Notes under the pieces: model-generated
What the model was told of the DNA's origin: nothing
What the model saw: only the letters and a program-made list of their open reading frames with translations
Databases searched by the model: none
Part shown: piece after piece, positions 6,960-10,714 of the stretch
Position numbering within the stretch: position 1 is the first letter of the stretch
How the letters are laid out: each line of letters opens with the position of its first letter
Source: an uncultured archaeon
GTDB taxonomy: Archaea > Iainarchaeota > Iainarchaeia > Iainarchaeales > CSSED10-239
Length of the DNA stretch: 13,590 bases
Assembly (NCBI GenBank): GCA_964468895.1
Contig: CAYXWT010000019.1
Span: 1-13,590, forward strand
Direction: 5' to 3'
Position numbers and translations under genes: made by a program

Positions 6960-7337
6960 TTAAGATGTTAATTTACCTGCATTATCACTTGGTGAAGAAT
7001 TATAAATCTTCATAACACTTAAAACCAAAACACCTTTAATAGGATAATTCTTGTTATTATCTTTAATCCATTTTTTAGCAACATCAAAATAATCTCCAGA
7101 TATATAATATTCTGAATTACAAATATATTGATAACTATCATAATCTTTAGTAACTAATAAACTTACAATTTTATTACTTTGAACATTATCATAAGTCTTA
7201 TTAAAATAATTATCAATAATTATGATTTTATCATTATAAATAAATTTCGCAGCAACAGTACACACATTTGGTATTTTCTCTATTGAACAAGTTCCTAATT
7301 GAACACATTTAACAGAATTAATAAAATTAAAATTCAT
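6960..7337 (-). CDS. Pyridoxamine 5'-phosphate oxidase-like (split-barrel FMN-binding) family protein
   Basis: 125 aa. The pattern LGTCSIEKIPNVCTVAAKFIYNDKIIIIDNYFNKTYDNVQSNKIVSLLV...EYYISGDYFDVAKKWIKDNNKNYPIKGVLVLSVMKIYNSSP fits the small PNPOx-like family. That family reads (LATvd-G-PN-v...dd-i-I-DN-m-KT--N---N--VSl-V ... G-f.....KG-i-i-V-ki) from memory, not from a search. AAGGAG Shine-Dalgarno (plus-strand ctcctt, 7345-7350) lies 7 nt upstream of the ATG. Confidence 0.6.
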   Translation of the reverse strand: MNFNFINSVKCVQLGTCSIEKIPNVCTVAAKFIYNDKIIIIDNYFNKTYDNVQSNKIVSLLVTKDYDSYQYICNSEYYISGDYFDVAKKWIKDNNKNYPIKGVLVLSVMKIYNSSPSDNAGKLTS

Positions 7338-7361
7338 ATCTAGACTCCTTATTTACAAAAA

Positions 7362-7448
7362 CACAGAGGATGGGATTTGAACCCACGGACAAGTTTCCCT
7401 GCCACTTAGTTTCGAACCAAGCACCTTAAACCACTCAGTCACCTCTGC
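7362..7448 (-). tRNA. tRNA-Ser (anticodon CGA), class II with long variable arm; CCA not encoded
   Basis: The reverse complement reads GCAGAGG-TG-ACTGAGTGGTTTAAGGT-G-CTTGG-TTCGAAA-CTAAG-TGGCAGGGAAACTTGTCC-GTGGG-TTCAAAT-CCCAT-CCTCTGT-G. It has a 7-bp acceptor stem (one G:U) and a D-loop with GG. The 5-bp anticodon stem carries the loop TT-CGA-AA (U33, purine 37). The variable arm is 18 nt with a CAGG/CTTG stem, and the T arm has the TTCAAAT loop. A T5 tract (7357-7361) follows directly. Confidence 0.9.
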
Positions 7449-7771
7449 AAAATAACATCATTAATAATACATAAAATGAATTTTAAAATTTGTGTAGCAC
7501 TATCTTCTTCGTTTATGTTTTTAATTATAATTTTTAAGGATGAGAATATAGTTACTTCTGAATCTTTATGTTTAATAGTTATAAAAAAAGGTATACTTTC
7601 TTTTTCAACAAATATTTTTTTAAGTTTAAATTTATTTAATAATTTTTCCAAGTCTATTTTTTTAGTAAATTTAGGGAAAAACTCAAAACCAGGAGTAGCT
7701 TTACAGGGATCTAAAATAAATTGATCTACAGTTATTTCTTTAAATTTAGCACCAAGCATATTTAACATCAT
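7439..7771 (-). CDS. Hypothetical 110-aa protein (small alpha/beta module); stop codon lies inside tRNA-Ser
   Basis: ATG-initiated ORF starting 20 nt downstream of the ATPase gene on the same strand. Its C-terminal half (FFITIKHKDSEVTIFSSLKIIIKNINEEDSATQILKFI) has a beta-beta-alpha pattern. It has no obvious Shine-Dalgarno, it is the only CDS in the window ending in TGA, and its last 10 nt overlap the tRNA 5' end. Coding status is therefore moderate. The antisense ORF 7476..7724 is judged a shadow. Confidence 0.5.
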   Translation of the reverse strand: MMLNMLGAKFKEITVDQFILDPCKATPGFEFFPKFTKKIDLEKLLNKFKLKKIFVEKESIPFFITIKHKDSEVTIFSSLKIIIKNINEEDSATQILKFILCIINDVILQR

Positions 7772-7791: not shown

Positions 7792-10533
7792 TTATATTAT
7801 TTGATTTACCACACCATCAACCAAAACTGGTCTTTCTTTAAATTTAGGATCTACTAACACTATTTTCCAAACTGGCCAATATATAGATTCTACACCTACA
7901 AACTCTAATTTACCCCATAATTTTTGTAAATTACCCTTAATATCAGATATATTGTTTTCAACTTCAAAAATACTACTAGTAGGCAATTCTTTCTTTCTTA
8001 AAGGTAAAATATTTAAAGAACCAATAATATTATGATTTGCTGAAAAAGGTACATCAAAATTACTAGATAATTTATAAATTTCAACATCGTGCTTTTTAGT
8101 AATGTTTACTAACAAATTTTGTTTAAAGAATTTAATTCTTTCAACAATTAATGTTTCATCTAAATCAATTTCTTGAGTTAAAGAATAGATTGTACTTTGT
8201 TTTTTTAAGAGATATAATAAATCTAAATCAGATTCTGAAAACAAAGGTAATTTTGTTAAGCCTTTAGATGCTCTAAAATTATTATTTACAAAATGTAATA
8301 GTTCACCAGTAATTGAATCTGCATAACAAACATTTCTTTTAAAATTATCATTATTATCATAAAGATTAAAATAAATTTTATATACAAGTCTATGATATAA
8401 CGAACTTTCATTAACAGTTTCTTTATTTTTAAAAAATAAATAAGATTTAGGAATTGTAGTTTTAGCTTTTTTTTCAGCAAGCTCTTTACTTATTCTTAAT
8501 GGAAAACATTCACAAATTTTATTATTTTCTTTGTCTACTTCTTCTAATTCTTCAGCAATTTCTAAAGCATCTATATCTTTAAGTTTAACTTTTTCTTCAA
8601 CATTATCATCGTTAGGAACAGTATCAAAAACATTATCATCTTCATCTACAACTTCATGATTAGAAGGATTTTCTAGTTTATCAATTTCTTTTTTAATTTC
8701 TTCAACATTATCAATATTAGATATATTTTCTTCTCTAATAAACAACTCTTTATTTTTTAAAATAATATTTAGTTCATTTAATTTTTTAAGAACTTTTTTC
8801 CAAGAAACTTTACTACGATATTTAATATTTATAATATCAAGAATATCCTGAGCATAATTTTCTTTAATTGTTCTTGTTTTTTTAATTTTATTAAATATTA
8901 GATTACTAGCCCTTTCTATCACTTCTTCATCACTTATGTCTTCTACTTGTCTAATAGTTTCTGCATCTCTACCTTCATGTTGAGAAGCACGAGGCTTAAT
9001 TTTTAAAATAAAAGCTCTACTACTTTCTTCTCTTCTATCACCTATAAGTGCAACACCTACAGGAAGTGTTTTAATAAAATTAGGCTTTTTATATTCTTCA
9101 GGAATTATTGCAGGCATTCTTTTATGAATTGCTTTAATATCATCATTAAAAACTAATTTATGACTTATAAAAATATCTACTTGACTTAAAACTTTACTAT
9201 TTATTGCAGAAGGTTGTTGAGTTGCAAATACTAATGAACAGCCTGGTCTTCTACCTTGTTTAACATATTCAACAACAGCTACAGTTGCAGGAGTTTGTGT
9301 ATTTCCTGAAGGTATTAAGGTGTGAGCTTCATCAATATATAACCAAGTAGGTGGAATTTCTATTTCTAATAATAAATCTGGATTTTCTTCTTTAGTTTCA
9401 AATTTTTTAATAGCATCTTGTCTAGTCACAAGCTTTCTAGCAGAAAGTATTCTTCTAGCTAATATTCCTATAACTAAAGCTGTAATATTATCATCTAAAA
9501 AACTAGTATCTAAAATTGTTAATTGACCTTCTCTAGAAAGTTTAGTTAAAGGAGTTCCATGGTCACTAAAGACACCCCAAGACTTTGCAGCTTCGAACCT
9601 AGATACTAATGCTCTAATAGAATCTGGTTTATAACCTTTTTGTGAAGATTTAAATTCAGTATTATTCTGTAAACAATAAATAATATCACCTAAAGTAAAT
9701 TGACTACCTTTTGGTAATATTTCTTTAAGTTCGCTATCAGATTTAGGATCTCCAGCTATATAACCATTTTTAACAAAACTTAAAGTTTTTTCTAAAAGAA
9801 GACCTGTTGGATTAAATCTATCTATTGCAAAAGTTAAACACCAATCTTCTGATTCTAACATAGAAGGAAATAAAGAAAATGTCTCATCATAAGTATCTTT
9901 AGATATTTTATCTACCATACCATCTGGTACAAATACTTTTAAATTATCTAAACCTTTTGGTTTTAAATTCCATTTTTCTAAAATTTCAAGTTCTTTTTTT
10001 TCTTGATTTGGAAATCTCATTGACCAGAAAACACCAACTGGATCAACAACGATTTGGCCTATAAAAGGATTAGTAACTGCAAGTTCTTCAGCAATAACCC
10101 CTAAACCATAACTTTTACCAGATCCACGTGATCCATCTATAAAAACAATATGTGGGTTTAGACCATCCAACCTTATATTTTTATCTTTTAAATCATCTTC
10201 ATAAACCTTACCTAAAAAAGCAGAAGATTTAGAACCATATTGTTTCAAAATGGATTTTTTTCTACCAATATATACAACAGATTTATCTTCTAAATCTTCT
10301 AATAATTTTAATTTAGGTTTAATTGTAGTATCTATTTCTTTATTATCATTATTTTTAACGATATGATCTGGTACATATTCTTTAGAACCTAAAGGTACAT
10401 TAGAATTATCTAAATCTTTAGAGTTCTTTGAATGTTCTGAACTTTCTAAAACTTTATTTTTAGAATCATCTTTAGATTCCATTTCTTCAAAAAAATCTGA
10501 TTTTTCAGAATTATGTTCTTTAATCACACTCAT
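7792..10533 (-). CDS. HerA/FtsK-superfamily P-loop ATPase (DUF87-like core) fused to a disordered N-terminus, an acidic linker and a C-terminal winged-helix-containing module
   Basis: Walker A is FIDGSRGSGKSYGLG (GSRGSGKS = 10111..10134). Walker B is WLYIDEAHTLIP (LYIDEAH = 9322..9342). The HerA-type segment GRRPGCSLVFATQQPSAINSKVLSQVDIFISHKLVFNDDIKAI is present, as is the helical insert ALVIGILARRILSARKL. The track ORF starts at TTG 10656 and adds 41 junk-like residues. The first ATG, 10533 (MSVIKEHNSEK), is preferred, with a TTTTATATAT element about 45 nt upstream. This gives 913 aa. Confidence 0.85.
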   Translation of the reverse strand: MSVIKEHNSEKSDFFEEMESKDDSKNKVLESSEHSKNSKDLDNSNVPLGSKEYVPDHIVKNNDNKEIDTTIKPKLKLLEDLEDKSVVYIGRKKSILKQYGSKSSAFLGKVYEDDLKDKNIRLDGLNPHIVFIDGSRGSGKSYGLGVIAEELAVTNPFIGQIVVDPVGVFWSMRFPNQEKKELEILEKWNLKPKGLDNLKVFVPDGMVDKISKDTYDETFSLFPSMLESEDWCLTFAIDRFNPTGLLLEKTLSFVKNGYIAGDPKSDSELKEILPKGSQFTLGDIIYCLQNNTEFKSSQKGYKPDSIRALVSRFEAAKSWGVFSDHGTPLTKLSREGQLTILDTSFLDDNITALVIGILARRILSARKLVTRQDAIKKFETKEENPDLLLEIEIPPTWLYIDEAHTLIPSGNTQTPATVAVVEYVKQGRRPGCSLVFATQQPSAINSKVLSQVDIFISHKLVFNDDIKAIHKRMPAIIPEEYKKPNFIKTLPVGVALIGDRREESSRAFILKIKPRASQHEGRDAETIRQVEDISDEEVIERASNLIFNKIKKTRTIKENYAQDILDIINIKYRSKVSWKKVLKKLNELNIILKNKELFIREENISNIDNVEEIKKEIDKLENPSNHEVVDEDDNVFDTVPNDDNVEEKVKLKDIDALEIAEELEEVDKENNKICECFPLRISKELAEKKAKTTIPKSYLFFKNKETVNESSLYHRLVYKIYFNLYDNNDNFKRNVCYADSITGELLHFVNNNFRASKGLTKLPLFSESDLDLLYLLKKQSTIYSLTQEIDLDETLIVERIKFFKQNLLVNITKKHDVEIYKLSSNFDVPFSANHNIIGSLNILPLRKKELPTSSIFEVENNISDIKGNLQKLWGKLEFVGVESIYWPVWKIVLVDPKFKERPVLVDGVVNQII

Positions 10534-10714
10534 AATAATCTTCTCAAAATTATTTCTACAAAAATATATTTTATTAATATAATATATAAAAGAAATAGTA
10601 TTTAAATAGTTAATTGTTAATCTATCTAGAATATATCTCAGAATGTACAAAAACAATTAAACTATATATGAAAAACATAAGATACAAGCTTTAAACTCGC
10701 ATAGTCTTAAGACT

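Follow-up and report, generated by a model that had tools for sequence, protein, structure and literature searches.

What has been built onto the C-terminal end of a large archaeal ATPase, and what could it do for the motor that carries it? The locus lies in a 13,590-nt stretch of DNA from an uncultured archaeon of the Iainarchaeota (contig CAYXWT010000019.1), which we call the window and to which all positions refer. On its minus strand, the gene at 7792..10533 (TAA stop at 7792-7794 included) encodes a 913-amino-acid (aa) protein assigned to the HerA/FtsK-superfamily (DUF87) ATPases. Its last 242 codons (residues 672-913, 7795..8520, minus strand) form the C-terminal module considered here, for which module numbering is the residue number minus 671. 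A sequence-only reading of the same DNA had seen in this module two similar segments on either side of a winged-helix-like segment. We find that the module is a new architecture of known folds, two PepSY-like units flanking a winged helix-turn-helix (wHTH), and that it is conserved intact across several archaeal phyla.

A repeated unit on either side of a winged helix

The two segments that had been aligned with each other, A (residues 712-748, 8290..8400) and B (residues 882-913, 7795..7890), lie exactly at these positions when counted from M1 at 10533. Within the window sequence alone, their similarity is marginal, with a Smith-Waterman score of 22 vs. 15.2±3.1 for shuffled sequence (p=0.042). 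A comparison of the N-terminal with the C-terminal third of the module, with no segments picked, gave a result (p=0.64) that weighed against a true duplication. Both values favor an alternative explanation, in which the repeat is a chance or convergent likeness of two β-hairpins.

Profiles built from homologues, however, argue strongly against such a coincidence. The first homologue set consisted of the best 120 relatives of the full-length protein, of which 118 kept the ~245-aa C-terminal region and two (P0008 and P0042) only part of it; 118 sequences, the window protein included, were aligned for profiles. In hhalign, residues 672-760 matched residues 825-913 with a probability of 95.2% (E 2.8e-8, 54 columns), whereas control comparisons of either flank with the middle part gave 3-7%. 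The score of 43.75 lay ~19 standard deviations above that of 100 column shuffles of the C-terminal profile (9.7±1.8, maximum 15.2), and a reversed-profile control scored 12.4. A second, independent set of 96 remote representatives, only 12-24% identical to the window module, reproduced the match (97.3%, E 2.2e-11, 57 columns; controls <4%). Because the profile similarity is far above shuffles and recurs in the remote set, we conclude that the duplication is real and older than the radiation of the family. We therefore consider chance or convergent likeness highly improbable. The internal repeat proposed for residues 672-913 thus holds at the profile level, and its significance against shuffled sequence depends on the profiles rather than on the window sequence itself.

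The repeated unit is also larger than first described. The aligned spans cover residues 678-743 and 857-910, and they include an upstream helix, with PLRISKELAEKKAK aligned to NISDIKGNLQKLW. The aromatic hairpins follow, LVYKIYF with YWPVWKIV, and the alignment continues to the hDSxTG / hDGVxG turn. Instead of a mere hairpin, each copy is a complete β-α-β-β-β domain of ~70-85 residues, helix included.

To place these elements in a structure, we modeled residues 672-913 with AlphaFold2 (AF2) on an alignment of 55 sequences (A1). The model scored a mean predicted local distance difference test (pLDDT) value of 96.8 and a predicted template modeling score (pTM) of 0.90. In module numbering, unit 1 comprises β2-5, α12-20, a hairpin at 35-54, β60-68, and β74-84. 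The middle part has helices at 88-93, 96-104, 111-117, and 122-134 and wing strands at 138-143 and 146-151. Unit 2 comprises a short helix at 164-171, β175-178, α191-202, a hairpin at 205-223, β229-235, and β241. The flanks share a β-α-β-β-β(-β) topology with the same element order, a further point against a chance likeness of hairpins. Modeled alone, unit 2 fell to a pLDDT of 78.5 and a pTM of 0.52 and lost one hairpin strand. For this reason, we read the three parts of the predicted structure as mutually dependent and packed as one rigid unit.

Both flanking units are PepSY-like at the family level. Unit 2 (residues 846-913, 7795..7998, minus strand) runs from a β-strand through a helix (862-873), a β-hairpin with Y-W-P-V-W, and a further strand to the terminal hDGVxG. 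The Pfam family PepSY (PF03413) matched 21 of the 55 homologous modules at E<=0.01, with a best E of 6.5e-8. In two homologues, the match at unit 2 exceeded the gathering threshold (GA) of 24 bits: P0095, with 29.1 bits over residues 803-858 of 859 and model positions 1-58 of 60, and P0058, with 26.4 bits. The top match of a unit 2 profile among PDB sequences was likewise a PepSY propeptide protein (9vy3, E 0.04). A Foldseek search with the lower-quality model of unit 2 alone returned cyanase (E 0.75) and YpmB (2gu3, E 4.6).

Unit 1 (residues 672-757, 8263..8520, minus strand) is built of a strand, a helix, a basic loop, a β-hairpin, and two more strands, and was modeled at a pLDDT of 86-99. 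Its own PepSY matches, seen in 3 of 10 homologues, ran the full length of the model but were sub-threshold (E 0.07-0.22), and it is the hhalign E-value of 2.8e-8 that ties it to unit 2. That PepSY is the family indicated for both units is another point against a chance resemblance. Unit 1 carries a family median net charge of +4 and a basic loop with the consensus RKKKxLGxFG; the RKKK loop is missing in unit 2. Its C-terminal end is the near-invariant S-x-TGEF-x-HF...F-x-ES-x-G.

The likeness to PF03413, the family of M4 peptidase propeptides, YpeB, and YpmB, lies in a helix followed by strands ending in hDAxTGxh. The PepSY element order, β-α-β-β-β, fits both units in the AF2 model. By this comparison, unit 2 surpassed the Pfam threshold across the full model in many homologues, P0095 and P0058 being those named. 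There are also clear differences. Classical PepSY domains are secreted or periplasmic, and here two copies flank a wHTH in a cytoplasmic ATPase. The usual extracytoplasmic location does not apply, as the units are fused to a P-loop ATPase without a transmembrane-like segment; no 20-residue stretch of the whole protein has more than 14 hydrophobic residues. Unit 1 has its extra basic loop, and the window copy stays below every Pfam threshold, with no PepSY match at E<=1 and no Pfam match of any kind in residues 672-913. The sequence-only reading had offered PepSY-like and PH-like as alternatives for the hairpin units. The former is borne out by the family-level matches, while the PH-like identity was rejected because no tool returned a PH-type match.

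Between the units lies a wHTH of the MarR/TrmB/ArsR type (residues 758-823, 8065..8262, minus strand), assigned from the AF2 model, Foldseek, and PDB profile matches. Its predicted helices span residues 759-764, 767-775, 782-788, and 793-805, the last being the recognition helix, and two wing strands follow at 809-814 and 817-822; the helical core and two-stranded β wing were modeled at a pLDDT of ~97-98. Foldseek aligned the region with HlyU, CzrA, and SmtB over 63-66 columns (root-mean-square deviation 1.5-2.6 Å, probability 1.00, though E only ~3e-3). The module profile matched MecI (4e-6) and AdcR (2e-5) among PDB sequences, and also HlyU, Lrs14, CzrA, and SmtB. Pfam TrmB, HTH_27, and IclR exceeded GA in several homologues, with TrmB matching 21 of 55 modules; the window copy itself gave a weak NCBIfam ArsR/SmtB match (E 0.038). 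A wHTH with a β wing had been suspected in the middle of the module and is found there. The coordinates given for the middle segment, about 8089..8241, need a shift of 3-21 nt, as the stretch SESDL...EIYKL corresponds to residues 766-822 and 8068..8238.

In fold and profile, residues 758-823 resemble the MarR, TrmB, ArsR-SmtB, and BlaI-MecI regulators. Unlike those free-standing dimers, however, the wHTH here is a single copy within a larger module, is weakly basic, and lacks dimerization helices of the MarR or ArsR kind.

A connector joins the wHTH to unit 2 (residues 824-845, 7999..8064, minus strand). It follows the pattern D-[LV]-P-x-x-P-x-H-x-x-L-x-S-L-x-x-L-P and has a short helix at 835-842 (module 164-171). 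In alignment A1, P158 (module numbering) is invariant and S168 is at least 90% conserved. Across the family, the near-invariant residues E705, G743, E744, H747, S756, P829, S839, P887, D906, and G910 all belong to the PepSY-like units and the connector, and the wHTH is more variable than either.

The combination had not been recognized as a named domain, and our searches agree. No dedicated model for the triad exists in Pfam (2025), NCBIfam (2026), PADLOC, or PHROGs. When the complete module was searched with Foldseek in PDB and BFVD, only the wHTH was matched and no whole-module counterpart was returned, and we found no description of a PepSY-wHTH-PepSY module in the searchable literature. 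Six solved HerA chains recovered by sequence search were all missing from what the module matched in PDB, whether by sequence or by Foldseek.

The motor, its tether, and the spread of the module

The protein that carries the module is, by its Walker motifs and family hidden Markov models (HMMs), a P-loop ATPase of the HerA/FtsK superfamily. Pfam recognized DUF87, the HerA central domain, at residues 132-362 (38.4 bits, GA 23.2) and HerA_C at residues 393-503 (22.1 bits, GA 22). The ATPase core (residues ~70-545, 8899..10326, minus strand) contains four motifs, GSRGSGKSY (Walker A), WLYIDEAH (Walker B), RRPGCSLVFATQQPSAI, and SQHEGRDAET, all with column conservation of 90-100% in 120 homologues from several DPANN phyla. 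Its nearest solved relatives are HerA chains (8xau, E 1.5e-7). A moderately conserved post-ATPase region follows (residues 546-597, 8743..8898, minus strand), into which the HerA_C match extends in some homologues (e.g., P0054, 510-742).

The core thus shares its DUF87 and HerA_C P-loop organization with archaeal HerA, the helicase of HerA-NurA end resection, and with anti-phage HerA. Still, the protein is not a canonical HerA (HerA-NurA) orthologue. Its NCBIfam equivalog scores were 24-35 bits vs. cut-offs of 800-850, with HerA_Thermprot at 23.6 vs. 800, and neither the window nor any of eight related loci has a NurA-like gene.

Motor and module are separated by an acidic, low-complexity linker (residues 598-671, 8521..8742, minus strand) of variable length and gappy alignment. 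In the window, its 74 residues include 27 D/E vs. 8 K/R. Across the family, its median length is 43 (range 22-83) and its median net charge is -8. The linker is a disordered, flexible tether between motor and module. A fixed triad on an acidic tether offers a concrete, testable handle on a conserved ATPase.

Few large proteins of DPANN archaea are as well conserved as the ATPase, which is without an assigned role. A full-length query recovered 721 relatives at E<=1e-3 among 8,000 candidates scored, and members are 45-76% identical across phylum-level groups. By contrast with this full-length query, the C-terminal 242 aa on their own returned no match in a word-indexed search. An exhaustive HMM search with A1, however, found the module in 456 representative proteins at E<=1e-3, with named sources in Diapherotrites/Iainarchaeota, Micrarchaeota, Thermoplasmatota, and Hadarchaeales. 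Full-length proteins nearly always covered A1 profile positions ~3-247, which indicates that the triad travels as one piece. The module is almost always C-terminal to a HerA-like ATPase. In a sample of 156 module sequences (146 new representatives plus cluster members), 90 contained the same ATPase core by HMM, and the rest were mostly short fragments. Candidate stand-alone module genes (250-330 aa) were rejected, as one of the two inspected proved to be a fragment at a contig end and the other a split ATPase gene.

Several architectures recur among these proteins. The module occurs with the ATPase alone in proteins of ~650 aa, with DUF87, DUF835, and SAP in proteins of 1200-1300 aa, and with DUF835 and SAP only. 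In P0187, P0199, P0201, P0198, and P0221 (Thermoplasmatota and others), DUF835 and SAP stand between ATPase and module, and some of these genes were called without the ATPase. One family of 436 aa has an N-terminal module followed by a C-terminal PLD-family nuclease domain (P0268/P0236, module at residues 22-250 and nuclease domain at 308-429, L014:5001-6311). The gene for this fusion is the last in a zinc-ribbon/VWA/FHA/FHA/Ser-Thr kinase/PP2C operon adjoining a TFIIB gene.

Some orthologues (P0117, P0140, and P0186) contain LAGLIDADG/intein insertions that lengthen them to 1200-1500 aa. Such insertions are typical of highly conserved nucleic-acid-handling ATPases.

What the module may do for the motor

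We suggest that the module probably directs the motor toward DNA or toward a protein partner. More specifically, it may be a targeting or regulatory device comparable with the γ domain of FtsK, a proposal drawn by analogy to which we give about an even chance. FtsK γ reads KOPS sites and contacts XerD. Like it, the module places a C-terminal winged helix on an FtsK/HerA-superfamily motor via a flexible linker, and this makes FtsK γ the best functional analogy. The two differ in that the wHTH here is of the MarR/TrmB/ArsR type and embedded between two PepSY-like domains, and any reading of DNA would be predicted from the analogy. The motor also differs, as it is HerA/DUF87-like and soluble, without a membrane anchor. 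Pfam scans of the window protein and the 55 modules gave no match to FtsK_gamma, and the likeness is thus functional and architectural only.

We favor a role in DNA handling because the module occurs on HerA motors, together with SAP, and on a PLD nuclease; because its recognition helix carries a K/R pair in much of the family (K/R at two positions in 73% of sequences); because unit 1 is basic; and because a TBP-domain gene is its neighbor in some lineages. In such a mechanism, the wHTH would recognize DNA, perhaps with the aid of the basic loop (RKKK) in unit 1, and the PepSY-like pair would fix its orientation and serve as a scaffold. The pair could also offer a protein-docking surface along the near-invariant TGEFxHF...ESxG edge. 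The module might then load or orient a presumably hexameric translocase on its substrate. In addition, the acidic tether may keep the module masked as long as no DNA is engaged.

The TBP-domain neighbor is a single-domain protein of 110 aa encoded on the minus strand at 7439..7771, 20 nt downstream of the ATPase gene. A gene of this kind, with a product of ~100-114 aa, lies ~10-40 nt 3′ of the ATPase gene both in the window and in the closer relatives. Pfam TBP matched the window copy at E 1e-3 and 10 of 17 homologues, and a profile of this protein (A4) matched archaeal TBP (2z8u) at E 8e-7. The gene holds the same position in the Iainarchaeota-like loci L001, L003/L008, L005, and L007. In the window lineage, its product, presumably co-transcribed with the ATPase, would be a likely second nucleic-acid-binding partner. 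We rejected the TBP-domain partner as a universal feature, as it is restricted to an Iainarchaeota-like sub-clade. Monopartite TBP-domain proteins have been described in Thermococcales and have been of unknown function since 2013 (PMC3597702). In the present lineage, gene order links proteins of this kind to a motor ATPase.

Several observations weigh against DNA targeting by an FtsK-γ-like device. The wHTH is near neutral, with a family median net charge of +1 (range -11 to +10) and ~-1 in the window by hand count. In the window protein, V797-E798 (8140..8145) replace the usual K/R pair, and from this substitution the window lineage may have weakened or altered whatever the recognition helix binds. 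Set against this charge and this substitution, the clamp or sensor for nucleic acid that the sequence-only reading had suggested is likewise a conjecture. The near-invariant residues all fall outside the wHTH core; the only one in the span is G758, at the junction of unit 1 and wHTH. PepSY domains (PF03413) are classically extracytoplasmic protein-protein or inhibitor modules and not DNA binders. The TBP-domain gene is not beside the ATPase gene in L006, L011, L012, and L013, where the downstream gene differs. Finally, both the hexamer and the translocase activity are assumptions drawn from superfamily membership only.

Many of these observations would also fit the main alternative role, that of a protein-protein adaptor or autoregulatory plug, in which the wHTH binds protein and the PepSY-like pair binds or inhibits either the ATPase ring or a partner enzyme. 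Winged helices serve protein interactions in MCM, ESCRT-II, and cullins, and PepSY propeptides inhibit their own peptidases. That the highest conservation falls in the PepSY-like units and connector rather than the wHTH core is in line with this role, as are the near-neutral wHTH, the loss of the basic pair in the window copy, and the reputation of PepSY as a protein-binding or inhibitory domain. The same is true of the PLD-fusion member, which ends a VWA-FHA-FHA-kinase-PP2C signaling operon. However, every sequence relative of the wHTH is a DNA-binding regulator, the longer forms combine the module with SAP motifs, one family fuses it to a nuclease, and the K/R pair recurs on the recognition helix at the family level. 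We regard an adaptor or plug as possible, if on the unlikely side.

The identity of the closest winged helices and the position of the most conserved residues raise one more alternative, in which the module senses a small molecule or signal and gates the ATPase. A ligand would sit in the cleft that separates the two PepSY-like units, with the wHTH passing the change on as in TrmB or MarR. The near-invariant polar residues E744, H747, S756, and D906 do cluster at the unit ends, and the wHTH relatives MecI, AdcR, CzrA, SmtB, and HlyU are ligand- or metal-responsive. Yet none of the known ligand-binding domains matched the module, a ligand pocket is not known for PepSY, and no metabolic gene is consistently linked at the related loci. 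Such a sensor seems quite improbable to us.

If the FtsK-γ analogy is true, it would point to the way in which these minimal archaea handle their chromosomes. One could go further and see here a widely conserved, essential-looking, and undescribed archaeal DNA translocase family, centered on DPANN and extending to Thermoplasmatota and Hadarchaeales, with an FtsK-γ-like reader for loading or orientation, a monopartite TBP-domain partner in some lineages, and a candidate role as a motor of chromosome segregation or resolution in archaea with reduced genomes. We consider this wider proposal doubtful. At the level of folds, the module extends PepSY from secreted inhibitor domains to a cytoplasmic, nucleic-acid-associated setting.

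Genomic setting and gene start

The window is very AT-rich (G+C ~22%), and its nearest genomes are Candidatus Iainarchaeum / Diapherotrites metagenome-assembled genomes (DPANN). A mechanical list of open reading frames (ORFs) had started the ATPase gene at TTG 10656. We favor ATG 10533 because a protein in the public collection (P0001) is identical over 913 aa; database homologues also begin at the ATG corresponding to 10533. The 41 upstream codons to TTG 10656 (LFLYILRYILDRL..., 10534..10656, minus strand) look like read-through of AT-rich non-coding DNA.

A locus scan with the single protein returned 4 close loci. Housekeeping genes in the window encode ribosomal protein L21e, DUF655, KsgA/RrnaAD, and a nucleoside (AMP) phosphorylase-family enzyme, together with UppP/BacA, YdjM, GDPD, and a methyltransferase. 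Elsewhere, the neighbors of the ATPase gene are also housekeeping genes, with conserved synteny. With its extreme core conservation, its inteins in some orthologues, and these neighbors, the ATPase has a core-gene character.

PADLOC matched the ATPase core to mad8 (5.5e-19) and to HerA models but matched none of the neighboring genes and revealed no partner defense genes, and PHROGs returned nothing for the module. No Sir2, DUF4297, or mad genes were found nearby, and membership of an anti-phage defense system with co-located partners, such as MADS (mad8), HerA-Sir2, and similar systems, was not supported. A defense-island or viral origin was rejected, as the PADLOC matches were limited to the generic ATPase core, PHROGs gave nothing, and the synteny is of the housekeeping kind. 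Because of these PADLOC, PHROGs, and synteny results, we treat the ATPase gene as a chromosomal core gene rather than a defense or mobile one.

Two smaller features lie beyond the TBP-domain ORF, both on the minus strand. An ORF of 125 aa at 6960..7337 narrowly passes the threshold for the pyridoxamine 5′-phosphate oxidase-like split-barrel family (PNPOx_N, 29.4 bits vs. GA 28.1); it is missing at the syntenic loci L001 and L003. The sole tRNA of the window, tRNA-Ser(CGA), is encoded at 7361..7449 (Rfam, 49.3 bits); at its 5′ end, it shares 11 nt with the 3′ end of the TBP-domain ORF, stop codon included.

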